Shown: positions 1 through 20,347, numbered from the stretch's first letter. The stretch: DNA of 64,000 bases from Methanobacteriota archaeon (GCA_963769885.1 CAVYNH010000001.1:1-64000); one strand, 5' to 3'. The notes: a model not told the origin generated them from the letters alone. Numbers and translations: made by a program.

Positions 1-755
1 TCGGTCTTCTTAATCTCTAAAGCGGCGTTGACCAAGGCGATCTTGGCGTTGTGGACGTGCTTGGGCATGCCTTCGTGGACGCGTTCCTTGTCGAGGATGA
101 TGCCCTTGATGATCTTGGTATCGTTGATGCTACCGCCCTGTTTCTTCTGGATCTGGATGTTGTCCATGTCGACTTCGGTGCGTCCATCGATTTTCTCGGC
201 GACGCTGGTGACCGCGTCGACGACGACGTCGGAGAGGATTGCTTTTGCGGAGCTGGCTCCCTTGCTGGCCATGGAGGTCATGGCGATGTTCTTCAGCGTT
301 TTTTTGTCGTTGGGCTTGATCGGGATCGCCATCTTGTTGAGGATTTCGACCGCCTTTATGGCCGCCTTCTGGTATCCGCCCGTGATGACGGTGGGATGGA
401 TGTTCTGTTCGATGAGCTCGCCGGCGTTGCGAAGGAGTTCTCCGGTGAGGATCACGGCGGTGGTGGTGCCGTCGCCGCATTGTTCGTCTTGGGCTTTGGC
501 GACTTCGACGATCATTTTTGCGGCGGGGTGTTCGACGTCGATTTCTTTGAGGATGGTGGCGCCGTCGTTGGTGATGACGACGTCGCCCATGGAGTCGACG
601 AGCATCTTGTCCATGCCTTTGGGTCCGAGCGTGGATTTCACGGCGTCGGAGATTGCGCGGGCTGCCATGATGTTGTTGAGTTGGGCGCCTTTGCCTTTTT
701 CGCGTTTCGTGCCTTCTTTAAGGATGATTATGGGTGTCTGTCCTCCAGCCATCAT
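1..755 (-). CDS. Thermosome subunit, 5' part (mirror copy, runs off the window edge)
   Basis: Reverse complement of 18692-19446 (MMAGGQTPIIILKEG...GDGTTT). Confidence 0.9.
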   Translation of the reverse strand, partial: MMAGGQTPIIILKEGTKREKGKGAQLNNIMAARAISDAVKSTLGPKGMDKMLVDSMGDVVITNDGATILKEIDVEHPAAKMIVEVAKAQDEQCGDGTTTAVILTGELLRNAGELIEQNIHPTVITGGYQKAAIKAVEILNKMAIPIKPNDKKTLKNIAMTSMASKGASSAKAILSDVVVDAVTSVAEKIDGRTEVDMDNIQIQKKQGGSINDTKIIKGIILDKERVHEGMPKHVHNAKIALVNAALEIKKT

Positions 756-892
756 ACTGTTCTATGCCTCCTTTATAAGTAGGTTAAAAGCATTCCCAGC
801 ATATGGACACTTCTATATAAACCTATCTGAACAGGGTGCTGTGTAATACTGTAGTGGAAATTTAGTAGTGGAAAATCTGTAGTGGTATCAGA

Positions 893-2334: not shown

Positions 2335-2365
2335 TTTTAAATCTCCATTTGAATTATATAACTTT

Positions 2366-3527
2366 TCAATTCTGATTTTTAGCCTTTTGGTACTGAATTG
2401 ATTTTTTCATAAGTGTAAGCCATTTCTTTTTTCCTTCAATGGTTATCCCTGCTTCCTCACTCGGTGTTTTACCATCAAGTGTCTCATGTGGTTTAATGAA
2501 ATTGTAGTAAATCCTGTGCCCTTCAACGATAGGAGTTTTCTATCTTTATTCCTCTAATGCTTTTTCACGTTGCCGAATAGTCCCATGTAATCTTTCAACG
2601 TGGTTGTTATTTGGATGGTGCTTTAACCCTACATTCCATAGATGTTCGGTTTCATCATATTAGTTATAAACTCTTTGTTAATCGCATTTTTATATGCTGG
2701 TAGACCATCGGTAACAATGTATTTCGGTTTTCGTCCACCGCGTTCTTTTTTGCTTTCTGGAATACCATACGTGCATCTCTAACATGTCGTTCTTTTGATA
2801 CCACACTTGCTAATTGAAAACGTGTATTTTCATCCATGACATTCCAGAGGTACTCCCATGAGCCATCTATTTTAACCATCATTTCATCAGTATGCCATAC
2901 ATCCCCAATATCAGGTTGTATTTCATTGACGTATTCATTCATTATCCCTACATATTTTTCAATCCAATTGTAAACTGATTTATGGCAAATATTCAGATCA
3001 TAGAACTGTTTTAGATGTTGGCAGATTTTCCTGAGTGATATTCCTTTGAAATACAGATCAAGCGTTAATGCGATTATCTTAGGGTTATATTTCATATTCT
3101 CAAAATCAATATTATTGACAAATCTTCGATTACAGGTCTTACAGAAATAGACTTGTTTACTATTTTTCATCCCATATTTTGTCACTTCTGTTGAATGACA
3201 AAACTTACAGCAATCAACATCAATATCTGTTAACGTAATTTTCTGTTTCACTTTGAGATGTATTTGTTCAAATTTCTCTTTCAGGTTCTTCCATATCTTA
3301 ACCGCATTGATGTGTTTACAAGGTATTCCTCTTAGTTCAAAATCTGGACATGTACAATGCCAATACCGCATCTGTACATCAACTTGATATGTTCCATTTC
3401 CTGTCTGACTTGGCACTATCCACGTATGCGGATTAATCTCGGTTGGTTCTATTCCTTGTTTTAAAAGTGTCATGCCTCTAGCTTTTCTTGCGTTAACCAT
3501 TTCTTTAATATCTATTTTGTTGCCCAT
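2366..3527 (-). pseudogene. IS6/IS240-type DDE transposase with N-terminal SWIM and Zn-ribbon domains, frameshifted copy
   Basis: SWIM CTCPDF...CKHI; CxxC..CxxC ribbon; HTH (SLRKI...YNWI); WHTDE; TDG and NNHVERLHGT readable in shifted frames. Confidence 0.85.
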
Positions 3528-3685
3528 ATATTTCGCCAAGTTTTATAATACATTGTCAGTATATAAAGCTATCAGTTATCTTTATATATATAATAACCGT
3601 TTATGTGCAACATCAACGTACAACATAACTATGCACAAGGTATGTGCATCTTAATGTTGTATATAAAATTACAAGGAGAAAAACA

Positions 3686-4177
3686 ATGGATGACGCAATA
3701 AATAGAAGTCAAATCGGATTTTCAAAAGAGGAATTAAAAAAAATGTCTCCCGAAGATAGAAAAAGATTTGCTCGTTCAATCATATTAAAAGTTGTTAAAG
3801 ATAATCCACAAGGAATTAGTTTACCTCAAGTATCTGATGTTGCAGGGATTGATCGCAGAACAGCATCTAAACATTTAGATTACCTTACAGCGATCAGAGA
3901 GTTGTATAGGCGACAGTTTAGTCAAAGAAATTTCCTCTATTATCCTAATGGAAAAGTAGCCCATCCAACTTTAATAAAAGATGTAAAAATAGGTGAAAAA
4001 TATTATAACTTTCAATTGATCGAAAACCCTTTTGGTAAATTTGTGTATATCCAAGAAAAAACAAGAGATGAATACAATATTTTTACCATTGTCGGAGGAT
4101 TGATGTTAAATGCAAACCAACTCGATGAACTAATATTACATTTAAAAAATATTAAAAAAGAGGTCGATAGCATATGA
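3686..4177 (+). CDS. Winged-HTH protein with a C-terminal PUR/DUF3276-like nucleic-acid-binding domain
   Basis: ILKVVKDNPQGISLPQVSDVAGIDRRTASKHLDYL (wHTH); GEKYYNFQLIENPFGKFVYIQEK resembles a PUR repeat; aggag RBS; ATGA overlap with the next gene. Confidence 0.65.
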   Translation: MDDAINRSQIGFSKEELKKMSPEDRKRFARSIILKVVKDNPQGISLPQVSDVAGIDRRTASKHLDYLTAIRELYRRQFSQRNFLYYPNGKVAHPTLIKDVKIGEKYYNFQLIENPFGKFVYIQEKTRDEYNIFTIVGGLMLNANQLDELILHLKNIKKEVDSI

Positions 4178-5475
4178 AAGAAAAAGTAAAAAGATCAACC
4201 CAAGTGATGATCTATCCTGAAAAGAAAGTAAACAACGCAAGAATTACAACGATCAATTTAAACAATAAAACAATCAAAACACCCTGTTATATCCCTAAGA
4301 TAAGAACATCAAAAGAACTTGACATAATTATTGATGAAAAGAAAATAAATGACTATTTCCAAGGAATATTTTTTGATATATTAAATGTATCATCATTGAA
4401 CAGAGAGAAAACAATATTCAATCCTAAACAAACACGTTTAATCCCAATGATTTCCTATGATTTTAAAACCTTAAAAGGCATCCTCCCTGTTTTCATTGAT
4501 CCAAACACGGAATATCTTTATCTAAACAACAAGCAAAAAAGAACGCAATATAAAAATCTCCCGTCACTCCCACAAAAAATTTCTGATTTTTTAACCAAAT
4601 CAACATATGCGAATTATACTAAGATGTGGCAACAACTGTATAACTCAGGAGATACTACTACAGTCATCAACTGGAATGTAAGAGAACAAAATAAATATCA
4701 ACCTGATGCGATAGTACCATTCGTACCATTTATCGAGGGTGAAAACTCCCCTCTAATAGATATAGCAATTGATGTAAATAAAAAATCCGCTTTCACTATA
4801 GCGGATACCTTTGGTCTTGAACCATCTTTCTATTTTAACCTCAATTATTCAGCATTACGGAATTTAGATCAACTTAAAAAAATCACAGATTTCTTAATGG
4901 ACGTAGACGGAGAATATGAGAACGTAAAAATCATTTTCATCAAAATAAAATACTTCCCTCTGAATGATACCGATGTAAGAAGAAACCTCGGAACATTTGC
5001 CAAGTCTATTCAGGAAGCGGCTGAATTTAACAATAAATTTACTTTCTTGATAGATGCGGATGCATATGCCATACCATGTATATCCACTGGATTTGACGGT
5101 TTCATCGAACCATTAAATGGTTACATTAATGATTATGGCGGTAGCGGTAAATCTTCAAAATTCAGATCATATTATGACAGAAAACGAATGGAATTGGTAA
5201 AAGCAAATAAGATTAAAAATAAACCGTTAAAATGCGGTTGCCCCCGATGTTCAAAGATTAATGAAGTATATGGTGGCGCATTTTTTAACAAGATAGACCC
5301 GCATCTATGGAGTGCATGGAGTAAGGAACATTTGTTCTACAGTAGATGCCAAGAAGTAAAAGAAGTCAGGGACGCAATAAATGACAACGGCATAGCCAGG
5401 ATACAGGATAAATTCATCAACTCCTCCAAAAAAGATTTCATTGAAATTCTTGGTTACTACACTGATGGAGATTAA
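4174..5475 (+). CDS. Divergent tRNA-guanine transglycosylase (TGT/DpdA)-fold protein
   Basis: N-terminal ARITTINLNNKTIKTPCYIP resembles TGT ARxGxlxTxxGxIxTPxFMP; C-terminal CGCPRC...H...EVRDAI Zn site typical of TGT. Confidence 0.7.
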   Translation: MKEKVKRSTQVMIYPEKKVNNARITTINLNNKTIKTPCYIPKIRTSKELDIIIDEKKINDYFQGIFFDILNVSSLNREKTIFNPKQTRLIPMISYDFKTLKGILPVFIDPNTEYLYLNNKQKRTQYKNLPSLPQKISDFLTKSTYANYTKMWQQLYNSGDTTTVINWNVREQNKYQPDAIVPFVPFIEGENSPLIDIAIDVNKKSAFTIADTFGLEPSFYFNLNYSALRNLDQLKKITDFLMDVDGEYENVKIIFIKIKYFPLNDTDVRRNLGTFAKSIQEAAEFNNKFTFLIDADAYAIPCISTGFDGFIEPLNGYINDYGGSGKSSKFRSYYDRKRMELVKANKIKNKPLKCGCPRCSKINEVYGGAFFNKIDPHLWSAWSKEHLFYSRCQEVKEVRDAINDNGIARIQDKFINSSKKDFIEILGYYTDGD

Positions 5476-5672
5476 AACAGATTAAATTTTTTACCATCCC
5501 TATCGAAAAAACTACATAAGTTTTTTGGCGAAACATATGAGCTTAATGATAGGGATGGCAAGAACATCAATGTCATTTGTTTTTAAAATAGTTTGCAAAC
5601 CTAAAATACACAAAATATTTAAAAAATAAAAAATTACATACATTCAGAAGAATAGAGATAGAGGACATATTT

Positions 5673-6182
5673 ATGTGTGAAAAAGAAATAAGACAATACA
5701 ATTCAATTATTTCAATTTGGGAAAGATGGGATAAAGGATATTGGGACTCATTTCATTTTTATATTATTGTCATATCCTTATTATTCGCAGGCTATTCTCA
5801 AATAATAAATAAAATAAATATTGCAGCAGTAATAGTTTGTTTTACTGGTTTTATAATAAGTATTTTCTGGTTCTTTATTTTGCATAGAAAATATGCCCAT
5901 ATTCTTATAGCAGAAAATGAAGGAAGAAAATTAGAGACTAAAATATTCACAGATTGTAATGGTTGTTTTACTTCAAATAAAAATTTTAAGAAAGGAACAT
6001 ATAACGAAATTGATGAAGCTTTAGGTTGTAGAAAATTCTTAACAAAAATAAGTTCTGGTTTAATTGTATCATTTTTTGTACCATTAACATTTACCATAAT
6101 CTGGTTAACATTAATGATTATAACAACAGTTCATTGGATAATTAAGGATGTCTGTCCTTTCATCATATCAGTTATAACATAA
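5673..6182 (+). CDS. Small membrane protein (about 3 TM helices), transposon cargo
   Basis: Hydrophobic segments; gagga RBS; stop codon abuts the subterminal repeats. Confidence 0.7.
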   Translation: MCEKEIRQYNSIISIWERWDKGYWDSFHFYIIVISLLFAGYSQIINKINIAAVIVCFTGFIISIFWFFILHRKYAHILIAENEGRKLETKIFTDCNGCFTSNKNFKKGTYNEIDEALGCRKFLTKISSGLIVSFFVPLTFTIIWLTLMIITTVHWIIKDVCPFIISVIT

Positions 6183-6240
6183 CCATCTAAATTTCCCACT
6201 ACTGATTTCCCACTACAGTATTACACAGAACCCTGAACAG

Positions 6241-6292
6241 GGTTCTGTGTAACCGTGGTTTGGGCAGTTTAGACTGGGAAATCTAGGTTGGT
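6241..6292 (+). mobile_element. Terminus of a second related IS6-like element (mirror of 13159-13210)
   Basis: GGTTCTGTGTAA immediately follows the TSD, then diverged 14-bp-periodic TGGG repeats. Confidence 0.7.
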
Positions 6293-6375
6293 TTCTCCGA
6301 GAGTCGCTGATAAAAGGAAAATGATAAAACAAACAAGATGATGTAGATTTGCTTTCAAATTTAAAGGAGGTAAAT

Positions 6376-6657
6376 ATGGGTGTTGAAGCTTATAAAGAAT
6401 GCAGAGGCTTGGTAGAATCCTATGTTTGTAATAGAGGAACGACTATACAACGTGCTATAAAAAACATAAACACAAGACTGAAAAAAGCAAAATTAACCGA
6501 TCAAGATATTGAAAAAATTCTTGCGGAAGTCAATAAAAATAATGTATCTGATTTTGAAAATTCAACTGCTTTCCCCAATCTTTTTCAAGAAAGAAAACAA
6601 AGATTTGAACTCATAGAGAAAGAACTACAACAATTATTGAATATACATCTAGCTTAG
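6376..6657 (+). CDS. Hypothetical protein, 93 aa
   Basis: ggagg RBS, ATG at 6376, open frame. Confidence 0.6.
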   Translation: MGVEAYKECRGLVESYVCNRGTTIQRAIKNINTRLKKAKLTDQDIEKILAEVNKNNVSDFENSTAFPNLFQERKQRFELIEKELQQLLNIHLA

Positions 6658-6703
6658 TTTTAGGTCCTACCGGAATTGAAGAATACTATTTCCCAAAGTA
6701 TAA

Positions 6704-6856
6704 GGGCCTGGTTCATAATTCGTTTCTCCTGTTGAACAAATCGTAAAGAATCTTGTGAGCTGCTGCTTTCCTGCTTCTTTTCTTCCAAATCACGCGCACT
6801 CTAGAATCAACAGTCTTTTAGACAATTTCTCCTGTTGGGAATTATGAACCAAGCCC
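6704..6856. mobile_element. MITE or internally deleted IS: 153 bp, 18-bp TIR, 9-bp TSD aaagtataa
   Basis: GGGCCTGGTTCATAATTC ... GAATTATGAACCAAGCCC; TSD at 6695-6703 and 6857-6865. Confidence 0.85.
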
Positions 6857-7018
6857 AAAGTATAAACGAAAGGATGGGAATTTTAGTTTTACAAATCCTT
6901 TTAACAAGCCGATGGATAAACAGTATTGGTTTCCCCGTATTGCGTCGTTCACCAAACTACGCTCAGTAGAAGACTTCTGATAAGTCAGGCTTTCTACCAG
7001 GGGAGACGGGAAAAAAAT

Positions 7019-7342
7019 ATGGTCGAAGAAACAACAGAGAAGAGAACAGCTGAAAAAGGAAGAACCGATGAAAACGTGATATATGTTGGAAAGAAACCCC
7101 CAATGAGCTATGTGCTTGCAATAGTAACACAGTTCAATAGTGGATCAGATGAAGTAATAATAAAAGCTAGAGGCAGAACGATTAGCACAGCAGTCGATGC
7201 TGCAGAAATAACCAGGAACCGGTTTGTCACAGACGTGAAAGTCAAAGACATAAAAATTAGTACTGAAAGTATCACCAATGAGGAAGGGAGAACCTCGAAT
7301 GTATCTTCAATGGAAATCTGCTTAACGAAAAAGAAAAAATAA
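7019..7342 (+). CDS. albA: DNA/RNA-binding protein Alba (mirror copy)
   Basis: [15 protein letters not shown]...[17 protein letters not shown]. Confidence 0.95.
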
Positions 7343-7387
7343 AGAAGTAATTGAAAAATAAGAGAAGAAAAAAAAGAGGGATATGGA

Positions 7388-9682
7388 CTAATATTGTAGT
7401 CCTAATCTTTGGATTATTTTTTGTAGGATTGGGAACAGATTAGGATGATTCTCTACGAACCTTAGGAATGGTACGTGAGTATATGCTTTGTTTGTAGGCA
7501 TAGTCACTGACAATGTCGACTCTGGACCTATTAAACCATTAACATCCTCAGCTCTTGCTTTGATAAAATAAGTCCCTCGACTACTCCAAGTGTGTGATAC
7601 CGTTACATCTGTACCAGATGGACTAAAAGCAGTCGTATCAGAGGTATTATCACCCCACTCAATGATGTAACGAACTTGATCTCCATCTGGATCTACTGCG
7701 TTGAATATATAGTTATACCCTATTCCTACTATTCCACTTGTTGGACCATTTATTGTTGGTGCATTTGGAGGATTTCCACCGCCACCGGTGAACTTTGCCA
7801 CAAAAGCATCTCCACCGCCGTTGTAGATTCTGTCGTAGGCTCCTAGTGTCGTCGGAAAATCAGAAGAATAGGTTGCACCGGTGATGGAGGCTTCCCCATC
7901 ATCAATCGCAATATCATGGCCATAATCATAATAGGTTCCGCCGAGGTAGGTACTGTAGATAAGGATGTTACCACCAGGGGAAAGCTTCGACACAAAAACA
8001 TCTCCACCGCCGTTGTAGGTGGTGTCGTAGGCTCCTAGTGTCGTCGGGAAATTAGAAGAATTGGTGCCACCGGTGATGTAGGCGTTCCCACCAGCAACCG
8101 CAATACAATAGCCCCGATCAATATCAGTTCCGCCGAGGTATGTACTATAGTTAAGGGAGTTACCAGTACTGAGTAACTTTGTCACAAAAGCATCTCCACC
8201 GCCGTTGTAGGTGGTGTCGTAGGCTCCTAGTGTCGTCGGGAAATTAGAAGAATAGGTGTAACCGGTGATATAGGCGTTCCCATCAGCAACTGCAATACCA
8301 AGGCCCTCATCATTAAGGGTTCCGCCGAGGTAGGTACTGTAGATAAGGGAGCTGCCAGTACGGGGAAACTTTGTCACAAAAACATCATACCCGCCGTTGT
8401 AGGTGGGGTCGTAGGCTCCTAGTGTCGGGAAATTAGAAGAATTGGTGCCACCGGTGATGTAGGCGTTCCCATCAGCAACTGCAATACCATAGCCATAATC
8501 ATAACCTATTCCGCCGAGGTATGTACTGTAGGCAAGGGCGTTGCCAGCAGGGCGAAACTGTGTCACAAAAGCATCACTATAACCGTTGTAGGTGGTGTCG
8601 TAGGCGCCGGGTGTTATCGGAAAATCAAAATCAGAAGAATAGGTTGCACCGGTGATGGAGGCGTTCCCACCAGCAACTGCAATACCATAGCCATAATCAG
8701 AACTGGTTCCGCCGAGATAGGTACGATAGATAAGAATGCTACCATAAGGGGAAAGCTTAGTCACAAAAACATCACAATAACCGTTGTAGGTGGTGTCGTA
8801 GGCTCCTAGTGTCGTCGGAAAATCAGAAGACCAGGTGCCACCGGTGATGTAGGCGTTCCCATCATCAACCGCAATATCATGGCCCCGTTCATTATTGGTT
8901 CCGCCGAGGTAGGTACTGTAGATAAGGGCGTTACCAGCAAGGGGAAGCTTCGACACAAAAACATCATACTGGCCGTTGTAGGTTCTGTCGTAGGCTTGTG
9001 GTGTCGTCGGAAAATCAGGAGAATTGGTGTAACCGGTGATGTAGGCGTTCCCATCATCAACCGCAATACCAAGGCCCTCATCATAATAGGTTCCGCCGAG
9101 GTAGGTACTATACGCCAGCGTAGGGTCGATAACAAGTGGATACAACGGATTGTATTCATCCTCGATAGCAAAACCGAAACTATTTGGCTGTCTGGGTTCG
9201 TATCTTCCTATAATCCCTTGTTTTATGCCGTTGATTTCTTGGTATATCACCGGTGATTTCTCGGAAAATAGACCAAACCGGGTCTCTATCGCAAGGTCAC
9301 CATCTGATGTTACCCTCATGTTATCAACACCATCATATCGAATAAGAATCGTATCTGGGTCTCCACCAGAATAGACAATGAAATCGTATTTCAACGTGTT
9401 CTCAATGAAATGGTACTGTAAATCAATTCCAGGGTAGATACCCTTGTACACAACCTCTTGGTAATTCGGAACATCGGTATACCACTTCTCAGGGTTATTT
9501 CCAATGAAATAGTTGTTATTGTTAGGAAGTCGACGCTCACCGGTAACGACTGCACTGGGGTTTGCGCCAACAAACTCCGCGACCGTAGAAATCATCTCCA
9601 TCTGTTGCGGTTCTCTTACTTGTATTCGTTCCATCGGGTTTTTGTTATCCTTCAAATCGGCACTCTTAGAATCGTTTAATTC
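7388..9682 (-). CDS. SBBP-repeat beta-propeller/PKD surface protein, 5'-truncated at the fold-back
   Basis: Tandem YSTYLGG...AYITG.T.S.DFPTT.GAYD.TYNG..DVFV repeats; PKD-like WGD domain; amphipathic C-terminal tail. Confidence 0.85.
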   Translation of the reverse strand, partial: ELNDSKSADLKDNKNPMERIQVREPQQMEMISTVAEFVGANPSAVVTGERRLPNNNNYFIGNNPEKWYTDVPNYQEVVYKGIYPGIDLQYHFIENTLKYDFIVYSGGDPDTILIRYDGVDNMRVTSDGDLAIETRFGLFSEKSPVIYQEINGIKQGIIGRYEPRQPNSFGFAIEDEYNPLYPLVIDPTLAYSTYLGGTYYDEGLGIAVDDGNAYITGYTNSPDFPTTPQAYDRTYNGQYDVFVSKLPLAGNALIYSTYLGGTNNERGHDIAVDDGNAYITGGTWSSDFPTTLGAYDTTYNGYCDVFVTKLSPYGSILIYRTYLGGTSSDYGYGIAVAGGNASITGATYSSDFDFPITPGAYDTTYNGYSDAFVTQFRPAGNALAYSTYLGGIGYDYGYGIAVADGNAYITGGTNSSNFPTLGAYDPTYNGGYDVFVTKFPRTGSSLIYSTYLGGTLNDEGLGIAVADGNAYITGYTYSSNFPTTLGAYDTTYNGGGDAFVTKLLSTGNSLNYSTYLGGTDIDRGYCIAVAGGNAYITGGTNSSNFPTTLGAYDTTYNGGGDVFVSKLSPGGNILIYSTYLGGTYYDYGHDIAIDDGEASITGATYSSDFPTTLGAYDRIYNGGGDAFVAKFTGGGGNPPNAPTINGPTSGIVGIGYNYIFNAVDPDGDQVRYIIEWGDNTSDTTAFSPSGTDVTVSHTWSSRGTYFIKARAEDVNGLIGPESTLSVTMPTNKAYTHVPFLRFVENHPNLFPILQKIIQRLGLQY

Positions 9683-12063
9683 CCGGAAGAAGTACCGTTT
9701 CAGACGCATGCCCCCGGGGCAACCGTCTATCTCTGCAAGAACAAAATCGTCTCAGTGTTCACCAGAGAATTAAACGATTCTAAGAGTGCCGATTTGAAGG
9801 ATAACAAAAACCCGATGGAACGAATACAAGTAAGAGAACCGCAACAGATGGAGATGATTTCTACGGTCGCGGAGTTTGTTGGCGCAAACCCCAGTGCAGT
9901 CGTTACCGGTGAGCGTCGACTTCCTAACAATAACAACTATTTCATTGGAAATAACCCTGAGAAGTGGTATACCGATGTTCCGAATTACCAAGAGGTTGTG
10001 TACAAGGGTATCTACCCTGGAATTGATTTACAGTACCATTTCATTGAGAACACGTTGAAATACGATTTCATTGTCTATTCTGGTGGAGACCCAGATACGA
10101 TTCTTATTCGATATGATGGTGTTGATAACATGAGGGTAACATCAGATGGTGACCTTGCGATAGAGACCCGGTTTGGTCTATTTTCCGAGAAATCACCGGT
10201 GATATACCAAGAAATCAACGGCATAAAACAAGGGATTATAGGAAGATACGAACCCAGACAGCCAAATAGTTTCGGTTTTGCTATCGAGGATGAATACAAT
10301 CCGTTGTATCCACTTGTTATCGACCCTACGCTGGCGTATAGTACCTACCTCGGCGGAACCTATTATGATGAGGGCCTTGGTATTGCGGTTGATGATGGGA
10401 ACGCCTACATCACCGGTTACACCAATTCTCCTGATTTTCCGACGACACCACAAGCCTACGACAGAACCTACAACGGCCAGTATGATGTTTTTGTGTCGAA
10501 GCTTCCCCTTGCTGGTAACGCCCTTATCTACAGTACCTACCTCGGCGGAACCAATAATGAACGGGGCCATGATATTGCGGTTGATGATGGGAACGCCTAC
10601 ATCACCGGTGGCACCTGGTCTTCTGATTTTCCGACGACACTAGGAGCCTACGACACCACCTACAACGGTTATTGTGATGTTTTTGTGACTAAGCTTTCCC
10701 CTTATGGTAGCATTCTTATCTATAGTACCTATCTCGGCGGAACCAGTTCTGATTATGGCTATGGTATTGCAGTTGCTGGTGGGAACGCCTCCATCACCGG
10801 TGCAACCTATTCTTCTGATTTTGATTTTCCGATAACACCCGGCGCCTACGACACCACCTACAACGGTTATAGTGATGCTTTTGTGACACAGTTTCGCCCT
10901 GCTGGCAACGCCCTTGCCTACAGTACATACCTCGGCGGAATAGGTTATGATTATGGCTATGGTATTGCAGTTGCTGATGGGAACGCCTACATCACCGGTG
11001 GCACCAATTCTTCTAATTTCCCGACACTAGGAGCCTACAACCCCACCTACAACGGCGGGTATGATGTTTTTGTGACAAAGTTTCCCCGGTACTGGCAGCT
11101 CCCTTATCTACAGTACCTACCTCGGCGGAACCCTTAATGATGAGGGCCTTGGTATTGCAGTTGCTGATGGGAACGCCTATATCACCGGTTACACCTATTC
11201 TTCTAATTTCCCGACGACACTAGGAGCCTACGACACCACCTACAACGGCGGTGGAGATGCTTTTGTGACAAAGTTACTCAGGACCTGGTAACTCCCTTAA
11301 CTATAGTACATACCTCGGCGGAACTGATATTGATCGGGGCTATTGTATTGCGGTTGCTGGTGGGAACGCCTACATCACCGGTGGCACCAATTCTTCTAAT
11401 TTCCCGACGACACTAGGAGCCTACGACACCACCTACAACGGCGGTGGAGATGTTTTTGTGTCGAAGCTTTCCCCTGGTGGTAACATCCTTATCTACAGTA
11501 CCTACCTCGGCGGAACCTATTATGATTATGGCCATGATATTGCGATTGATGATGGGGAAGCCTCCATCACCGGTGCAACCTATTCTTCTGATTTTCCGAC
11601 GACACTAGGAGCCTACGACAGAATCTACAACGGCGGTGGAGATGCTTTTGTGGCAAAGTTCACCGGTGGCGGTGGAAATCCTCCAAATGCACCAACAATA
11701 AATGGTCCAACAAGTGGAATAGTAGGAATAGGGTATAACTATATATTCAACGCAGTAGATCCAGATGGAGATCAAGTTCGTTACATCATTGAGTGGGGTG
11801 ATAATACCTCTGATACGACTGCTTTTAGTCCATCTGGTACAGATGTAACGGTATCACACACTTGGAGTAGTCGAGGGACTTATTTTATCAAAGCAAGAGC
11901 TGAGGATGTTAATGGTTTAATAGGTCCAGAGTCGACATTGTCAGTGACTATGCCTACAAACAAAGCATATACTCACTTACCATTCCTAAGGTTCGTAGAG
12001 AATCATCCTAATCTGTTCCCAATCCTACAAAAAATAATCCAAAGATTAGGACTACAATATTAG
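9680..12063 (+). pseudogene. SBBP-repeat/PKD surface protein, 5'-truncated, with frameshifts near 11088 and 11282 (probably sequence errors)
   Basis: Frame is open from 9680 (FPEEVPFQTHAPGATVYLCKNKIVSVFTRE); ORFs 9755-11137 and 11458-12063; the mirror copy has no frameshifts. Confidence 0.85.
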
Positions 12064-12108
12064 TCCATATCCCTCTTTTTTTTCTTCTCTTATTTTTCAA
12101 TTACTTCT

Positions 12109-12432
12109 TTATTTTTTCTTTTTCGTTAAGCAGATTTCCATTGAAGATACATTCGAGGTTCTCCCTTCCTCATTGGTGATACTTTCAGTACTAATTTTTA
12201 TGTCTTTGACTTTCACGTCTGTGACAAACCGGTTCCTGGTTATTTCTGCAGCATCGACTGCTGTGCTAATCGTTCTGCCTCTAGCTTTTATTATTACTTC
12301 ATCTGATCCACTATTGAACTGTGTTACTATTGCAAGCACATAGCTCATTGGGGGTTTCTTTCCAACATATATCACGTTTTCATCGGTTCTTCCTTTTTCA
12401 GCTGTTCTCTTCTCTGTTGTTTCTTCGACCAT
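12109..12432 (-). CDS. albA: DNA/RNA-binding protein Alba
   Basis: Alba motifs GKKP and KARG. Confidence 0.95.
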
Positions 12433-12594
12433 ATTTTTTTCCCGTCTCCCCTGGTAGAAAGCCTGACTTATCAGAAGTCTTCTACTGAGCGTAGTTTGGT
12501 GAACGACGCAATACGGGGAAACCAATACTGTTTATCCATCGGCTTGTTAAAAGGATTTGTAAAACTAAAATTCCCATCCTTTCGTTTATACTTT

Positions 12595-12747
12595 GGGCTT
12601 GGTTCATAATTCCCAACAGGAGAAATTGTCTAAAAGACTGTTGATTCTAGAGTGCGCGTGATTTGGAAGAAAAGAAGCAGGAAAGCAGCAGCTCACAAGA
12701 TTCTTTACGATTTGTTCAACAGGAGAAACGAATTATGAACCAGGCCC
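12595..12747. mobile_element. MITE, 153 bp, 9-bp TSD ttatacttt
   Basis: 18-bp TIR with 1 mismatch; TSD at 12586-12594 and 12748-12756. Confidence 0.85.
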
Positions 12748-12793
12748 TTATACTTTGGGAAATAGTATTCTTCAATTCCGGTAGGACCTAAAA

Positions 12794-13075
12794 CTAAGCT
12801 AGATGTATATTCAATAATTGTTGTAGTTCTTTCTCTATGAGTTCAAATCTTTGTTTTCTTTCTTGAAAAAGATTGGGGAAAGCAGTTGAATTTTCAAAAT
12901 CAGATACATTATTTTTATTGACTTCCGCAAGAATTTTTTCAATATCTTGATCGGTTAATTTTGCTTTTTTCAGTCTTGTGTTTATGTTTTTTATAGCACG
13001 TTGTATAGTCGTTCCTCTATTACAAACATAGGATTCTACCAAGCCTCTGCATTCTTTATAAGCTTCAACACCCAT
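12794..13075 (-). CDS. Hypothetical protein, 93 aa
   Basis: Mirror of 6376-6657. Confidence 0.6.
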   Translation of the reverse strand: MGVEAYKECRGLVESYVCNRGTTIQRAIKNINTRLKKAKLTDQDIEKILAEVNKNNVSDFENSTAFPNLFQERKQRFELIEKELQQLLNIHLA

Positions 13076-13158
13076 ATTTACCTCCTTTAAATTTGAAAGC
13101 AAATCTACATCATCTTGTTTGTTTTATCATTTTCCTTTTATCAGCGACTCTCGGAGAA

Positions 13159-13210
13159 ACCAACCTAGATTTCCCAGTCTAAACTGCCCAAACCACGGTT
13201 ACACAGAACC
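13159..13210 (-). mobile_element. Terminus of a second related IS6-like element abutting the TSD
   Basis: ...ttacacagaacc|ctgttcag|ggttctgtgtaa... Confidence 0.7.
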
Positions 13211-13268
13211 CTGTTCAGGGTTCTGTGTAATACTGTAGTGGGAAATCAGTAGTGGGAAATTTAGATGG

Positions 13269-13778
13269 TTATGTTATAACTGATATGATGAAAGGACAGA
13301 CATCCTTAATTATCCAATGAACTGTTGTTATAATCATTAATGTTAACCAGATTATGGTAAATGTTAATGGTACAAAAAATGATACAATTAAACCAGAACT
13401 TATTTTTGTTAAGAATTTTCTACAACCTAAAGCTTCATCAATTTCGTTATATGTTCCTTTCTTAAAATTTTTATTTGAAGTAAAACAACCATTACAATCT
13501 GTGAATATTTTAGTCTCTAATTTTCTTCCTTCATTTTCTGCTATAAGAATATGGGCATATTTTCTATGCAAAATAAAGAACCAGAAAATACTTATTATAA
13601 AACCAGTAAAACAAACTATTACTGCTGCAATATTTATTTTATTTATTATTTGAGAATAGCCTGCGAATAATAAGGATATGACAATAATATAAAAATGAAA
13701 TGAGTCCCAATATCCTTTATCCCATCTTTCCCAAATTGAAATAATTGAATTGTATTGTCTTATTTCTTTTTCACACAT
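13269..13778 (-). CDS. Small membrane protein, transposon cargo
   Basis: Identical protein to 5673-6182. Confidence 0.7.
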   Translation of the reverse strand: MCEKEIRQYNSIISIWERWDKGYWDSFHFYIIVISLLFAGYSQIINKINIAAVIVCFTGFIISIFWFFILHRKYAHILIAENEGRKLETKIFTDCNGCFTSNKNFKKGTYNEIDEALGCRKFLTKISSGLIVSFFVPLTFTIIWLTLMIITTVHWIIKDVCPFIISVIT

Positions 13779-13975
13779 AAATATGTCCTCTATCTCTATT
13801 CTTCTGAATGTATGTAATTTTTTATTTTTTAAATATTTTGTGTATTTTAGGTTTGCAAACTATTTTAAAAACAAATGACATTGATGTTCTTGCCATCCCT
13901 ATCATTAAGCTCATATGTTTCGCCAAAAAACTTATGTAGTTTTTTCGATAGGGATGGTAAAAAATTTAATCTGTT

Positions 13976-15275
13976 TTAATCTCCATCAGTGTAGTAACCA
14001 AGAATTTCAATGAAATCTTTTTTGGAGGAGTTGATGAATTTATCCTGTATCCTGGCTATGCCGTTGTCATTTATTGCGTCCCTGACTTCTTTTACTTCTT
14101 GGCATCTACTGTAGAACAAATGTTCCTTACTCCATGCACTCCATAGATGCGGGTCTATCTTGTTAAAAAATGCGCCACCATATACTTCATTAATCTTTGA
14201 ACATCGGGGCAACCGCATTTTAACGGTTTATTTTTAATCTTATTTGCTTTTACCAATTCCATTCGTTTTCTGTCATAATATGATCTGAATTTTGAAGATT
14301 TACCGCTACCGCCATAATCATTAATGTAACCATTTAATGGTTCGATGAAACCGTCAAATCCAGTGGATATACATGGTATGGCATATGCATCCGCATCTAT
14401 CAAGAAAGTAAATTTATTGTTAAATTCAGCCGCTTCCTGAATAGACTTGGAAATGTTCCGAGGTTTCTTCTTACATCGGTATCATTCAGAGGGAAGTATT
14501 TTATTTTGATGAAAATGATTTTTACGTTCTCATATTCTCCGTCTACGTCCATTAAGAAATCTGTGATTTTTTTAAGTTGATCTAAATTCCGTAATGCTGA
14601 ATAATTGAGGTTAAAATAGAAAGATGGTTCAAGACCAAAGGTATCCGCTATAGTGAAAGCGGATTTTTTATTTACATCAATTGCTATATCTATTAGAGGG
14701 GAGTTTTCACCCTCGATAAATGGTACGAATGGTACTATTGCATCAGGTTGATATTTATTTTGTTCTCTTACATTCCAGTTGATGACTGTAGTAGTATCTC
14801 CTGAGTTATACAGTTGTTGCCACATCTTAGTATAATTCGCATATGTTGATTTGGTTAAAAAATCAGAAATTTTTTGTGGGAGTGACGGCAGATTTTTATA
14901 TTGCGTTCTTTTTTGCTTGTTGTTTAGATAAACATATTCCGTGTTTGGATCAATGAAAACAGGGAGGATGCCTTTTAAGGTTTTAAAATCATAGGAAATC
15001 ATTGGGATTAAACGTGTTTGTTTAGGATTGAATATTGTTTTCTCTCTGTTCAATGATGATACATTTAATATATCAAAAAATATTCCTTGGAAATAGTCAT
15101 TTATTTTCTTTTCATCAATAATTATGTCAAGTTCTTTTGATGTTCTTATCTTAGGGATATAACAGGGTGTTTTGATTGTTTTATTGTTTAAATTGATCGT
15201 TGTAATTCTTGCGTTGTTTACTTTCTTTTCAGGATAGATCATCACTTGGGTTGATCTTTTTACTTTTTCTTTCAT
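13976..15275 (-). pseudogene. TGT-fold protein, copy with two frameshifts (probably sequence errors)
   Basis: Three ORF fragments together match the intact 4174-5475. Confidence 0.75.
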
Positions 15276-15762
15276 ATGCTATCGACCTCTTTTTTAATAT
15301 TTTTTAAATGTAATATTAGTTCATCGAGTTGGTTTGCATTTAACATCAATCCTCCGACAATGGTAAAAATATTGTATTCATCTCTTGTTTTTTCTTGGAT
15401 ATACACAAATTTACCAAAAGGGTTTTCGATCAATTGAAAGTTATAATATTTTTCACCTATTTTTACATCTTTTATTAAAGTTGGATGGGCTACTTTTCCA
15501 TTAGGATAATAGAGGAAATTTCTTTGACTAAACTGTCGCCTATACAACTCTCTGATCGCTGTAAGGTAATCTAAAGTTGAGATGCGGTTCTGCGATCAAT
15601 CCCTGCAACATCAGATACTTGAGGTAAACTAATTCCTTGTGGATTATCTTTAACAACTTTTAATATGATTGAACAAGCAAATCTTTTTCTATCTTCGGGA
15701 GACATTTTTTTTAATTCCTCTTTTGAAAATCCGATTTGACTTCTATTTATTGCGTCATCCAT
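15272..15762 (-). pseudogene. wHTH-PUR-like protein, copy frameshifted near 15580
   Basis: Fragments match 3686-4177. Confidence 0.7.
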
Positions 15763-15921
15763 TGTTTTTCTCCTTGTAATTTTATATACAACATTAAGAT
15801 GCACATACCTTGTGCATAGTTATGTTGTACAGTTGATGTTGCACATAAACGGTTATTATATATATAAAGATAACTGATAGCTTTATATACTGACAATGTA
15901 TTATAAAACTTGGCGAAATAT

Positions 15922-17080
15922 ATGGGCAACAAAATAGATATTAAAGAAATGGTTAACGCAGAAAAGCTAGAGGCATGACACTTTTAGAACAAGGAATAGA
16001 ACCAACCGAGATTAATCCGCATACGTGGATAGTGCCAAGTCAGACAGGAAATGGAACATATCAAGTTGATGTCCAGATGCGGTATTGGCATTGTACATGT
16101 CCAGATTTTGAACTAAAAGTATTGTAAACACATCAATGCGGTTAAGATATGGAAGAACCTGAAAGAGAAATTTGAACAAATACATCTCAAAGTGAAACAG
16201 AAAATTACGTTAACAGATATTGATGTTGATTGCTGTAAGTTTTGTCATTCAACAGAAGTGACAAAATATGGGATGAAAAATAGTAAACAAGTCTATTTCT
16301 GTAAGACCTGTAATCGAAGATTTGTCAATAATGTTGACTTCGAGAATATGAAATATAACCCTAAGATAATCGCATTAACGCTTGATCTGTATTTCAAAGG
16401 AATAAGTCTCAGGAAAATAAGCCAACATCTAAAACAATTCTATGAACTGAATATAAGCCATAAATCAGTTTACAACTGGATAGAAAAATATGTAGGGATA
16501 ATGAATGAATACGTCAATGAAATACAACCTGATATTGGGGAAGTATGGCATACTGACGAAATGATGATTAAAATAGATGGCTCATGGAGACCTCTGGAAT
16601 GTCATGGACGAACGTACACGGTTTCAACTCGCTTCTGTGGTATCAAAAGAACGATATGTTAAAGATGCACGTATGGTATTTCAGAAGGCAAAAAAGAACT
16701 GCGGTGGACGCAAGCCGAAGTTCATGGTTACCGATGGTCTACCCGCATATAGGGATGCGGTGAACAAGGAGTTTAAAACTAATACTGATGAAACAGAACA
16801 CCTATGGAATGTGGGGTTACAGCACCATCCAAATAACAACCACATTGAAAGATTACATGGGACAATACGGGATCGTGAAAAAACATTTAGAGGGTTAAAG
16901 ATAGAAAGTACCCCTATTATTGATGGGAACAGGATTTACTACAATTTCATAAAACCACATGAAAATCTTGATGGTAAAACTCCGAGTGAGGAATCGGGAA
17001 TAATCATTGAAGGAAATAATAAATGGCTTACTCTTATGAAAAAATCAATTCAGTACCAAAAGGCTAAAAATCAGAATTGA
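15922..17080 (+). pseudogene. SWIM/Zn-ribbon IS6-type DDE transposase, frameshifted copy
   Basis: WHTDE, VTDGLPAY, NNHIERLHGTIRDR, YYNFIKPH...GKTP. Confidence 0.85.
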
Positions 17081-17111
17081 AAAGTTATATAATTCAAATG
17101 GAGATTTAAAA

Positions 17112-18554
17112 ATGGAAAACATGCAAATAAAAACCGATACTATTTACTGCGGAGATTGCCTTGATGTATTGAGGCGATTTCCAGAAGGATTTGTAAATTT
17201 AATTTATCTTGATCCACCATTTTCAAGTGGCAGGATTTATAATATAGTGTTTGGCACTAATAGCGAAAAAAAAGCCTTTGATGATCGATGGAAAGGTGGT
17301 ATTCATCATTATATTGAATATATGAGGGAAAGACTCGAACTCTGCCATCGTGTTTTGGACAGTAAAGGGTCGATTTATTTACATTGCGATAGTCATGCAA
17401 GTCATTATCTCAAAATAGTGATGGATGATATTTTTGGTTATAATAATTTTAAGAATGAAATAATTTGGAAAAGAAAAGATGCTCAAAGTTTCACCAATAA
17501 ATATGGAGCTATGCATGATACGATTTTATTTTATACAAAATCAAATGAGTACACGTTTAACAAAGCATTAGAAGAGTACATTCCACTTAGCGAAGAAACC
17601 GCAGATACTTGGTATAAATATGAAGAAATTGCATCGAAAAATATTATTAATCGTCTTGGGAAAAAAATTGAAAAAGGACATGTAAGACGATACAATAAAG
17701 GTGATATAAGCGCACCTGGGGATAGGCAAGGTACGGCAGCGCATTATAAATGGAACGGAAAATATCCACCAAAGGGGAGACATTGGGAATATACGGTTGA
17801 GGTGATGGGGAGATTGGAAAGAGAAAAACGTCTTGCTTATTCTAAGAATGGAAGGGTTTATGAAAAGCGATATTTAGATGAAACAAAGGGGACACCTCCT
17901 CAAGACATTTGGACTGACATTTCTATGTTGCGTGGAATGGGTAAACATAGTGAAAAAAGTGAATGGATGGAATACCCAACTCAAAAACCAAAACGTTTAC
18001 TTGAAAGAATAATACGGATTTCCTCAAATGAAAATGACATTGTACTTGATCCTTTCTGTGGCTGTGGTACGACTATCGTTGCAGCACATTATTTGAGGAG
18101 AAAATGGATTGGTATTGATATTTCACCTACTGCATGTAATGTCATAAAAAATCGTATGGGAAATGTAAAAAAAATGGGATTGTTTGTCGTGAAAAACATT
18201 CCTATAATTGGACTCCCAAAGACAGAAGATGATCTTAGAAAATTGCATCCTTTCGAGTTTGAAAACTGGGTATGTGATGTTCTTTTCGCTATTCAGACGA
18301 AGAAAGCAAAAGACATGGGTATTGATGGATATACTATTGATGGAACAGTTCTCCAAGCAAAACAAATGGATAAAGTAGGAAGACCCATAGTAGATAATTT
18401 TGAGGCATCAATGAAGCGAGCTAAAACCAATAAAGGCATAGTTATTGCTTTTAGTTTTACTAAAGATGCTTTTGAAGAGGTTGCAAGAATAAAAAGCGAG
18501 AATATAGATATTACATTAAGATCAGTAAAAGAATTATTAGAAATGGGTTTCTAA
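17112..18554 (+). CDS. Beta-class N4/N6 DNA methyltransferase fused to a C-terminal Mrr-like PD-(D/E)xK domain
   Basis: DPPF (motif IV) lies before DPFCGCGTT (motif I); C-terminal FEFENWV...DMGIDGY...QAKQ. Confidence 0.88.
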   Translation: MENMQIKTDTIYCGDCLDVLRRFPEGFVNLIYLDPPFSSGRIYNIVFGTNSEKKAFDDRWKGGIHHYIEYMRERLELCHRVLDSKGSIYLHCDSHASHYLKIVMDDIFGYNNFKNEIIWKRKDAQSFTNKYGAMHDTILFYTKSNEYTFNKALEEYIPLSEETADTWYKYEEIASKNIINRLGKKIEKGHVRRYNKGDISAPGDRQGTAAHYKWNGKYPPKGRHWEYTVEVMGRLEREKRLAYSKNGRVYEKRYLDETKGTPPQDIWTDISMLRGMGKHSEKSEWMEYPTQKPKRLLERIIRISSNENDIVLDPFCGCGTTIVAAHYLRRKWIGIDISPTACNVIKNRMGNVKKMGLFVVKNIPIIGLPKTEDDLRKLHPFEFENWVCDVLFAIQTKKAKDMGIDGYTIDGTVLQAKQMDKVGRPIVDNFEASMKRAKTNKGIVIAFSFTKDAFEEVARIKSENIDITLRSVKELLEMGF

Positions 18555-18624
18555 TCTGATACCACTACAGATTTTCCACTACTAAATTTCCACTACAGTA
18601 TTACACAGCACCCTGTTCAGATAG

Positions 18625-18632
18625 GTTTATAT
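18625..18632 (+). promoter_or_regulatory. Putative TATA box of the thermosome gene
   Basis: tttatata about 60 bp upstream of the ATG; ggagg RBS downstream. Confidence 0.55.
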
Positions 18633-18691
18633 AGAAGTGTCCATATGCTGGGAATGCTTTTAACCTACTTATAAAGGAGGCATAGAACAGT

Positions 18692-20347
18692 ATGATGGCT
18701 GGAGGACAGACACCCATAATCATCCTTAAAGAAGGCACGAAACGCGAAAAAGGCAAAGGCGCCCAACTCAACAACATCATGGCAGCCCGCGCAATCTCCG
18801 ACGCCGTGAAATCCACGCTCGGACCCAAAGGCATGGACAAGATGCTCGTCGACTCCATGGGCGACGTCGTCATCACCAACGACGGCGCCACCATCCTCAA
18901 AGAAATCGACGTCGAACACCCCGCCGCAAAAATGATCGTCGAAGTCGCCAAAGCCCAAGACGAACAATGCGGCGACGGCACCACCACCGCCGTGATCCTC
19001 ACCGGAGAACTCCTTCGCAACGCCGGCGAGCTCATCGAACAGAACATCCATCCCACCGTCATCACGGGCGGATACCAGAAGGCGGCCATAAAGGCGGTCG
19101 AAATCCTCAACAAGATGGCGATCCCGATCAAGCCCAACGACAAAAAAACGCTGAAGAACATCGCCATGACCTCCATGGCCAGCAAGGGAGCCAGCTCCGC
19201 AAAAGCAATCCTCTCCGACGTCGTCGTCGACGCGGTCACCAGCGTCGCCGAGAAAATCGATGGACGCACCGAAGTCGACATGGACAACATCCAGATCCAG
19301 AAGAAACAGGGCGGTAGCATCAACGATACCAAGATCATCAAGGGCATCATCCTCGACAAGGAACGCGTCCACGAAGGCATGCCCAAGCACGTCCACAACG
19401 CCAAGATCGCCTTGGTCAACGCCGCTTTAGAGATTAAGAAGACCGAGGTCGACGCCCGCATCCAGATCCAGGACCCCAGCCAACTCCAGGCCTTCCTCGA
19501 TGAGGAAGAGACCATGCTGAAGAAGATGGTTGAAAAAATCAAGAAGAGCGGGGCCAACGTCCTCGTCTGCCAGAAGGGCATCGATGACATCGCCCAGCAC
19601 TTCCTCGCCAAAGATGGCATCTACGCGGTCCGGCGCGCCAAGAAATCCGACATGGACAAGCTCGCCAAGGCCACCGGCGCAAAGATCGTCGCCAACCTCG
19701 ACAACCTCAGCGTCAAGGACCTCGGACAGGCTGGCGCCGTCGAAGAACAGAAGATCGGCGACGACCGCATGACCTTTGTTGTCGACTGCAAGAACCCCAA
19801 GGCCGTCAGCATCCTCATCCGCGGCAGCACCGAACACATCGTCGACGAGCTTGACCGCGGCATGCACGACGCCCTCTTCGTCGTCAAAGTCGCCCTCGAG
19901 GACGGGAAGATGACCGCCGGCGGCGGCAGCGCAGCCACCGAGATCGCCATGCAGCTGCGCGAGTACGCCACCACTGTCGGCGGCCGCGAGCAGATGGCGA
20001 TCGAGGCGTTCGCCAACGCGGTCGAAGTCGTCCCCAAGACCCTGGCGGAGAACGCGGGTCTTGACCCCATCGATATGATGATCAACGTCCGCCGCGCCCA
20101 CAAGAAGGGCAACAAGTACGCTGGCATCGACGTCTTCAACGGCAAGATCACCGACATGATTGACAACAACGTCGTCGAGCCGCTGCGCGTCAGCGTCCAG
20201 GAAGTCACGGCATCCACCGAAGCCGCCAACATGATCCTGCGCATCGACGACATCATCGCCTCCAAGAGCGGTGGCCCAGCGCCCGGCGGCCCCGGCGGCA
20301 TGCCAGGCGGCCCCGGCGGTATGGGCGGTGACATGGACGAGTACTAA
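18692..20347 (+). CDS. ths: Thermosome (group II chaperonin) subunit
   Basis: TLGPKGMDKM, GDGTTT, GGM-rich tail. Confidence 0.98.
   Translation: MMAGGQTPIIILKEGTKREKGKGAQLNNIMAARAISDAVKSTLGPKGMDKMLVDSMGDVVITNDGATILKEIDVEHPAAKMIVEVAKAQDEQCGDGTTTAVILTGELLRNAGELIEQNIHPTVITGGYQKAAIKAVEILNKMAIPIKPNDKKTLKNIAMTSMASKGASSAKAILSDVVVDAVTSVAEKIDGRTEVDMDNIQIQKKQGGSINDTKIIKGIILDKERVHEGMPKHVHNAKIALVNAALEIKKTEVDARIQIQDPSQLQAFLDEEETMLKKMVEKIKKSGANVLVCQKGIDDIAQHFLAKDGIYAVRRAKKSDMDKLAKATGAKIVANLDNLSVKDLGQAGAVEEQKIGDDRMTFVVDCKNPKAVSILIRGSTEHIVDELDRGMHDALFVVKVALEDGKMTAGGGSAATEIAMQLREYATTVGGREQMAIEAFANAVEVVPKTLAENAGLDPIDMMINVRRAHKKGNKYAGIDVFNGKITDMIDNNVVEPLRVSVQEVTASTEAANMILRIDDIIASKSGGPAPGGPGGMPGGPGGMGGDMDEY

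Follow-up and report, generated by a model that had tools for sequence, protein, structure and literature searches.

We have characterized a mobile element in the window studied here, the first 64 kb of contig C1 of genome G000, an uncultured Thermoplasmatota archaeon whose assembly comprises 2.09 Mb in 7 contigs with a G+C content of ~55%. Our favoured reading, to which we give a probability of roughly 0.82, is that the 5394-bp element at positions 13219–18612 is a unit ('transporter') transposon of a large Thermoplasmatota family whose members are directed to promoters, stack upon one another, are probably regulated by a hairpin RNA and carry modification and restriction cargo. Base-precise insertion before the strongest promoters is the most interesting property of this family. 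Hereafter, C1–C7 are the contigs of G000, L numbers designate family loci (L001 and L002 being those of the host elements on C4 and C6) and G numbers designate other genomes.

A unit transposon with multi-site ends

The element is bounded by one pair of 23-bp terminal inverted repeats, GGTTCTGTGTAATACTGTAGTGG at 13219–13241 (+) and GGTGCTGTGTAATACTGTAGTGG at 18590–18612 (−), which agree at 22 of 23 positions with one base differing; the 23-mer has four matches in the window, compared with 0.00 expected from shuffled sequences. Both tips read GGT(T/G)CTGTGTAA, and the octamer ctgttcag lies immediately outside each of them (13211–13218 and 18613–18620) as an exact 8-bp target-site duplication. 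The left end (13219–13276, +) consists of the 12-bp tip GGTTCTGTGTAA, 4 bp and a series of 14-bp units, of which two are clear GTAGTGGGAAA copies beginning at 13235 and 13249 and a third, beginning at 13263, is degenerate. The right end (18555–18612, −) comprises the tip GGTGCTGTGTAA, 4 bp and three GTAGTGG units whose CCACTAC cores begin at 18562, 18576 and 18590, so that the subterminal spacing is 14 bp at both ends. The unit GTAGTGG(G/A)AAA occurs eight times in the window against 1.98 expected, a count reached by none of 100 shuffles. The terminal repeats, the ctgttcag duplication and the 14-bp periodicity inside each end, all proposed in an initial annotation made from the sequence, are thereby confirmed; promoter targeting, stacking, the regulatory hairpin, the frameshifts and the foldback at the contig end were absent from that annotation. 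The element arrived recently, as its perfect target duplication shows, and its G+C content (27–36%) is far below that of the host genes downstream (54–63%).

A search of the host genome with the tip detected two further elements, both with intact transposases and with other passengers. One, at C4:264436–271650 (L001:1001–8215), is 7215 bp long with the duplication CACCCCAA and a transposase of 394 aa; the other, at C6:779104–783583 (L002:1001–5480), is 4480 bp long with the duplication CCTATTGG and a transposase of 392 aa. Examination of 20 loci from other genomes added eight complete elements of 2.8–7.2 kb, including one in Nitrosopumilaceae that is only distantly related. Perfect 8-bp duplications are therefore present at the window element and at 10 other complete elements.

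The Thermoplasmatota ends follow a common plan of 58 bp, with a 12-bp tip, GGT(T/A)CTGT(G/A)TAA, 4 bp and three 14-bp units, nnnnTGGGAAAnnn. Among 23 ends compared, 22 have the GGT(T/A)CTGT tip, and the autocorrelation of the ends at a shift of 14 is 0.55 over a background of ~0.26. The variable part of the 14-bp unit is element-specific yet the same at both ends of one element: the C6 element has CGTTGGG where the window element has GTAGTGG, which the C4 element shares. Homologous transposases are thus accompanied by such ends, the 10 further complete elements having GG-CTGT tips, three units and duplications, and together with the domain models described below this supports the proposal of a distinct archaeal transposon type with multi-site ends and a SWIM-extended transposase.

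Two of the outside loci have unusual surroundings. A sibling with good ends, L023:6588–11473 (JGI Ga0504914_0000157, 52.8 kb), is 88% identical in DNA to the window element across the transposase and a module of winged-helix (wHTH) and TGT-like genes; its contig, which encodes mainly small unannotated open reading frames and a 1440-aa protein, is possibly a virus or plasmid. L012 (CAZQSR010000113.1, 7070 bp) is a complete 6961-bp element with only 55-bp flanks, which resemble a thermosome promoter. It was binned in a metagenome-assembled genome of Ignavibacteriaceae, a placement that is probably a binning error.

Insertion at a fixed distance from the TATA box

The right copy of the target-site duplication ends 5 bp before TTTATATA (18626–18633, +), the TATA box of the promoter of a thermosome (chaperonin) open reading frame at 18692–20347. 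For eight of the ten complete Thermoplasmatota elements, one flank shows the same arrangement of the 8-bp duplication, 5 bp and either TTTATATA or TTTAAATA. Unselected flanks were obtained from metagenomes by scanning with an end motif that carries no flank information. Within the 69 distinct flanks recovered, a TATA-like octamer was found nine times at offset 13 and at most once at each of 51 other offsets, and five other flanks showed the tip of a second element at a distance of exactly 8 bp. We also searched 197 genomes of the class for the pattern ACAGAACC-N(9-17)-TTTATATA, which gave 25 matches, all within the window's own taxonomic family, as compared with three for a reversed control. 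The gap was 13 in 18 of these matches, 14 in five, 15 in one and 17 in one, with gaps of 9–12 and 16 absent. These position statistics show that the staggered cut is positioned to leave 5 bp between the duplicated 8 bp and the TATA box. As selection alone would give no single-base peak, we take the spacing to be set by the insertion mechanism. The geometry also implies that the BRE/TATA core promoter survives insertion, the 13 bp ahead of the TATA box being rebuilt by the duplication. Targeting is nevertheless a strong preference and not a rule.

The genes downstream of the 18 gap-13 matches were thermosome genes in 10 cases and rpL3 in two, with rpS8e and rpL44e also represented; a thermosome gene likewise lies behind the TATA box at the window element, L005 and L008b. 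The three members in the host genome precede the thermosome gene (window), the rpL3 operon (C4) and the 16S rRNA gene (C6; Rfam 541 bits). In the last case the element is 13 bp before a TATA box located ~400 nt upstream of the 16S rRNA gene, which is presumably the promoter of the rRNA operon. In archaeal cells, the thermosome, rpL3 and 16S rRNA transcription units belong to the most active.

Stacking of elements at the same site

Across the left ctgttcag, the window element faces a decayed end of an older, different family member (13165–13210, −), placed tip-to-tip with it and 8 bp apart. This end reads GGTTCTGTGTAA ccgt GGTTTGGGCAGTTT AGACTGGGAAATCT AGGTTGG, its units being GTTTGGG, ACTGGGAAA and GGTTGG. 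A search to the left of 13210 that covered C1 and the initial 22 kb of C2 did not find the other end of the older element. Stacking recurs elsewhere in the family: L008 consists of two complete elements (L008a and L008b) with three copies of aaatacca, and stacks with remnants are present at L009, L001 and L007, the other flank of the C4 element (L001) containing a decayed older end with TGTGGGGA units. In the congeneric genome G001, a 500-bp stump of a different, truncated member occupies the identical position before the thermosome promoter, and element ends are similarly placed before this promoter in G014 and G008. In the more distant relatives G015, G016 and G018, the thermosome promoter is free and the 8 bp are not conserved.

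This pattern is explained if each newcomer takes its distance from one and the same TATA box: it must then fall on an identical 8 bp and duplicate them once more, so that the older element is pushed outward and the newest adjoins the promoter. Such stacking of later arrivals accounts for the decayed foreign end at 13165–13210, with a third junction of the ctgttcag type.

An IS6-type transposase with two N-terminal extensions

The transposase gene of the window element (15910–17080, +) encodes SWIM, zinc-ribbon, helix-turn-helix (HTH) and IS6-type DDE domains and is broken by indels at ~15961, ~16122 and ~16590; equivalents of D221, D281 and E319 are retained in this frameshifted copy. The protein is conserved in the family, with one copy of ~390 aa and the same domain order per element. 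The intact C4 homologue passed the NCBIfam IS6 model NF033587 (134.2 bits; cut-off 125) as well as models for PF13610 (DDE_Tnp_IS240; 74.9 bits, cut-off 27), SWIM (30.5 bits, cut-off 19.6) and an IS1/IS1595-type zinc-ribbon (NF050000; 34.7 bits, cut-off 28), in agreement with the initial annotation of an IS6-like transposase extended by a SWIM domain and a zinc ribbon. Residues invariant in 46 homologues are C65/C67/C77/H79 (CxC...CxH), C114/C117/C136/C139 (the ribbon) and the D221/D281/E319 triad. More than 512 protein clusters with 67–81% identity have the same architecture. The best annotated relatives, of the ISCpe7 type, are 32% identical over residues 146–377 only; the N-terminal 145 residues, containing the SWIM domain and zinc ribbon, had no counterpart in the plasmid collection, and the transposase profile had no match among solved structures. 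Several transposase copies would be expected to bind the three 14-bp-spaced units of each 58-bp end, and the enzyme would then cleave at the GG tips and link these to the target with an 8-bp stagger.

A candidate hairpin RNA (13873–13977, +) is also encoded by the element, with a folding energy of −34.4 kcal/mol and a z-score of −6.3. Its loop (13909–13926) holds GCTCATATGTTTCGCCAA; between this sequence and the start of the transposase gene (15910–15927), 16 of 18 positions are complementary. A co-varying hairpin is present in nine of ten elements, and in each the loop tracks the start of that element's own transposase gene with 0–2 mismatches in 16. Judging by this complementarity, the hairpin RNA probably limits translation of the transposase: its loop would pair with the transposase start and thereby lower the amount of enzyme produced.

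Cargo genes

The transposase is accompanied by four passenger genes. The count of one transposase and four passengers in the initial annotation holds once the frameshifts are read through, with the qualification that the genes for the transposase and for the 433-aa and 177-aa proteins are broken in the window copy. Passenger 1 (13269–13778, −) encodes a 169-aa membrane protein of the 8xMP family (PF24838; 39.6 bits, cut-off 30). Passenger 2 (13976–15275, −) encodes a 433-aa TGT/DpdA-like enzyme and is frameshifted near 14210 and 14451; its reading frame is uninterrupted in the element's mirror copy at the start of the contig (4174–5475, +). It is overlapped by passenger 3 (15272–15804, −; frameshift near 15576, intact at 3644–4177, +), a 177-aa protein for which a winged-helix fold is probable and should be taken as a lead only; this pair of genes is kept in the sibling L023. 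Passenger 4 (17112–18554, +) is intact and encodes a 480-aa N6/N4 DNA methylase fused to an Mrr-type PD-(D/E)xK nuclease domain, a single protein matching both N6_N4_Mtase (170 bits) and Mrr_cat (34.6 bits) and showing DPPF and D...QxK motifs. The methylase core recurs in L023, where a BglII-type endonuclease comes after it as a separate protein and the 8xMP gene is absent.

The 433-aa protein belongs to the TGT superfamily by its TIM-barrel fold, zinc site and catalytic aspartates, with a sequence identity to solved TGTs of 10–14% and a score below the Pfam cut-off. Its family profile matched archaeosine TGT (PDB 1iq8) with an E-value of 2.4e-11, and all top Foldseek matches of its structural model (pLDDT 88.9) were TGTs, the best again being 1iq8 (E 2.3e-11, TM 0.64). 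A CxCxxC...H zinc site is present, and D109, D308 and H386 are nearly invariant. DpdA puts a 7-deazaguanine base into DNA, and its gene usually accompanies those for DpdB/C or for preQ0 synthesis. The passenger resembles DpdA and archaeosine TGT in its TGT TIM barrel, zinc site, D109 and D308 pair and length of ~430 aa, and it differs in lacking the C-terminal tRNA-binding domains of ArcTGT; no DpdB/C partners were found within the element, where only the wHTH protein stands beside the TGT-like gene. The host encodes its own ArcTGT and QueC, and preQ0 should therefore be available. On the strength of the fold, our best guess is a DpdA-like role in DNA modification.

Cargo differs in every element, with 2–7 passenger genes in each, and none of the passengers of the window element recurs in the ten other complete elements. 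DNA methylase or restriction-modification genes are present in 5 of 11 elements, and the others carry PIN, TrkH, another transposase or unannotated genes. The C4 element, inserted before the rpL3 ribosomal-protein operon, carries a type IIG restriction-methylase gene together with a PIN gene. PADLOC returned nothing for the 433-aa, 177-aa and 8xMP proteins. The methylase–Mrr fusion and the TGT-fold enzyme bear out the earlier suggestion of modification and restriction-type cargo, as activities predicted from folds and motifs, and these genes may serve in defence.

The foldback at the start of the contig

Positions 1–9682 of the window are an inverted copy of 9767–19446, with 98.9% identity and starting at contig base 1. 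This stretch contains the mirror copy of the element (835–6232, −), which is not an independent insertion because its flanks, and with them the 5′ part of the thermosome gene, are mirrored as well; the genes called in 1–9682 are mirror duplicates. C1 turns back on itself at 9678–9682. Bases 3–565 of C2 overlap C1:9678–10240 at 99.8% identity before entering unique sequence, and this continuation supplies the missing 5′ part of an SBBP/PKD gene truncated by the foldback. C2 and C1 can therefore be joined, with the C2 overlap giving the true continuation. Arm A, the mirror side (1–9682), is probably a foldback join, either artefactual or a minority variant, and was used only as a second reading of the genes present on the side of the window element (arm B). 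A composite transposon formed by two inverted copies was rejected, since the flanks and inner segment are mirrored too and C2 is the true continuation.

Apart from the transposase gene, 11 substitutions and 6 indel columns separate the arms, and one more indel lies in the methylase gene. The indels break different genes, namely the methylase gene in arm A and the 177-aa and 433-aa genes in arm B, and those in passenger genes look like long-read error. A total of 92 differing columns is concentrated in the transposase gene (20/12/43 by codon position; 32 synonymous and 32 non-synonymous). Comparison of 15950–17450 with 2000–3500 shows that ~700 bp of this gene are ~10% diverged, mostly by changes of synonymous type, and that the rest is near-identical. 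The dominance of third-codon-position changes points to real allelic variation, with two variants of the element in the sampled population; the divergent segment is a recombination tract or strain variant in an otherwise identical element. This concentration of allele-like differences could also be accommodated by a true inverted duplication of at least 9.7 kb, including the 5′ part of the thermosome gene, in which both copies are real. We consider such a duplication unlikely given that the duplicated stretch extends to the first base of the contig, that C1 folds back at the point where C2 continues and completes the SBBP gene, and that no such structure was found at any other contig end of the host genome. 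Moreover, beyond the transposase gene there is roughly one indel for every two substitutions, and the genes broken by indels differ between the arms, as is typical of long-read error.

The SBBP/PKD gene (9755–12063; mirror 7388–9709) encodes a 773-aa DUF7948, SBBP-repeat and PKD surface protein with ~190-bp tandem coding repeats (10337–11669). It is followed by an Alba gene (12109–12525) and a 102-aa unannotated gene, and the three lie in a low-G+C island between the centre of the foldback and the old element end. Comparison of the window with itself also detected internal direct repeats at 52866–54406 and at 44326–44473 / 46103–46251 (71–89% identity), which are unrelated to the transposon.

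Alternative explanations

Several observations weigh against our favoured reading. Two of the ten complete elements have no TATA box at the expected distance, and among single ends the box is seen in only ~13% (9 of the 69 metagenome flanks). A strict empty site with a single ctgttcag, which the initial annotation had anticipated in relatives, was not found among congeneric and more distant relatives, the sole congeneric genome being occupied and the 8 bp unconserved in the distant ones. The sibling L023 has no target duplication despite its good ends. One explanation of the positional data would be survivorship, whereby insertions occur anywhere and only the harmless ones persist. The targets are essential and highly expressed genes, which cannot tolerate insertions in the coding region or the core promoter, and many metagenome ends lack a TATA box, both of which fit such a process. 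Selection would, however, permit any distance of 13 bp or more, and the observed gap is 13 in 18 of 25 matches with a shoulder at 14 and none at 9–12 or 16, while TATA-like octamers peak at a single offset out of 52. Insertion without targeting is, on these data, highly improbable. Alternatively, the element may be drawn to the end of a resident older element, as is known for IS30 and IS21, with the promoter being incidental. Tips exactly 8 bp apart do recur, in the window (13199–13219), at L007, L008, L009 and L001, and in 5 of the 69 metagenome flanks. L002, L005 and L012, however, occupy the 13-bp position without a resident end opposite, and the newest element is next to the TATA box in every stack examined, an order predicted by promoter targeting and not by end targeting. 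We therefore regard attraction to resident ends as very unlikely and retain insertion at a measured distance from the promoter as the explanation.

A further point against our reading is that the transposase gene is frameshifted in both mirror copies, at different places, such that the window copy may be dead. Possibly the frameshifts of the window copy are assembly errors. If they are real, the element would be a relic able to move only with transposase supplied by a sister, an alternative that we take seriously without favouring it. It is in keeping with the three frame-breaking indels in the window arm and at least two in the mirror arm, and with the existence of intact family transposases in C4 and C6 (74% nucleotide identity). 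The perfect duplication and near-identical ends argue instead for recent arrival, and sequence error is suggested by the passenger genes, since each of them is disrupted in one arm but reads through in the other. Help in trans is also made uncertain by the units of the C6 element, CGTTGGG as against GTAGTGG, although the C4 element shares GTAGTGG.

Comparison with known systems

IS6 members are, in the textbook view, tiny insertion sequences whose cargo moves only within two-copy structures, and IS6/IS26 movement involves formation of a cointegrate, by a replicative or conservative route, which is resolved by host recombination. The long IS6 transposases of clades h and i are extended at the N terminus by a zinc finger, to which clade i adds another N-terminal domain. 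The family described here resembles IS6/IS26 in having a DDE_Tnp_IS240 core with an HTH, GG tips followed by CTGT, an 8-bp duplication and a score above the NF033587 cut-off. In contrast to IS6/IS26, it has 58-bp ends with three 14-bp units rather than ends of 15–20 bp, a length of 2.8–7.2 kb with 2–7 passengers in one unit rather than 0.7–0.9 kb and two-copy pseudo-compound transposons, promoter-directed insertion, and its own candidate hairpin RNA. The definition of IS6 thus applies to the core, tips and duplication and does not extend to end structure, size and content. Simple insertions with duplications are compatible with several transposition pathways.

Published IS6 elements have terminal repeats of 15–20 bp and a length of ~0.7–0.9 kb (up to 1.8 kb), and encode a transposase only (Varani et al. 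2021, PMC7986276). The same review includes longer zinc-finger clades, h/VII (ISCpe7) and i/VIII, and gives ISDsp3 as the only passenger-carrying member ('transporter IS', tIS), and the IS6-family membership of archaeal and long forms was doubted by Harmer and Hall 2019 (PMC6807381). SWIM-bearing transposases, multi-unit ends and promoter-directed insertion are mentioned in neither PMC7986276 nor PMC6807381. Our transposase has a zinc ribbon as well as a SWIM domain and may be related to clades h and i, but ISCpe7-type proteins align with it only from residue 146. ISDsp3, compared here by its description, also has a single IS6-type transposase and passenger DNA inside one pair of ends; it is a single copy with one hypothetical passenger, as opposed to a whole family with changing multi-gene cargo.

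Other features of the family have parallels in unrelated elements. Tn7, Mu, Tn552 and IS21 have multiple transposase-binding sites at each end and use accessory ATPases. The present family similarly has several repeated subterminal sites within ~60 bp of each tip, but those elements have other transposase families and site spacings, and no accessory ATPase was seen in the window family. In IS10/Tn10, RNA-OUT exerts antisense control over transposase translation; our candidate hairpin RNA is likewise encoded by the element and has a loop matching the transposase start, but it is encoded 2 kb from that start and not antisense at the same locus. Integration of Ty3, as also of Ty1 and Tf1, is directed to promoters by transcription factors, the Ty3 integrase using TFIIIB, which consists of TBP and Brf1, a homologue of TFB. 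Ty3 and the archaeal family share base-pair-precise insertion upstream of heavily transcribed genes, sparing of the target and repeated use of the same site. Ty3 is, however, an unrelated eukaryotic long terminal repeat retrotransposon, and contact of the archaeal transposase with TBP/TFB is hypothetical. By analogy, and tentatively, since we rate the idea as somewhat unlikely, the transposase may be guided by the archaeal pre-initiation complex, reading the bent promoter DNA bound by TBP/TFB, perhaps via its SWIM domain, and measuring 13 bp from the TATA box at those promoters that are most heavily occupied, namely those of the thermosome, ribosomal-protein and rRNA operons. If so, the family would be a prokaryotic DDE counterpart of Ty3–TFIIIB targeting and would provide archaea with a natural system of safe-harbour integration.

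Significance

The family is large and apparently undescribed in the literature, where we found no account of SWIM–IS240 transposases, archaeal IS6 cargo transposons, TATA-directed archaeal integration or the 8xMP passenger. In this family, an IS6 catalytic core powers single-unit transposons with long multi-site ends and freely exchanged restriction and DNA-modification cargo, making it a likely vehicle for the spread of these genes among uncultured archaea. Among archaeal or bacterial DDE transposons, we found no precedent in the literature for insertion at a single set distance from the TATA boxes of the strongest promoters. Stacks of element ends before thermosome, rpL3 and rRNA operons, as encountered in genome annotation, are now explained. 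Finally, the family provides an archaeal test case for how mobile elements find safe sites via the transcription machinery, and is a possible tool for site-directed integration in archaea.

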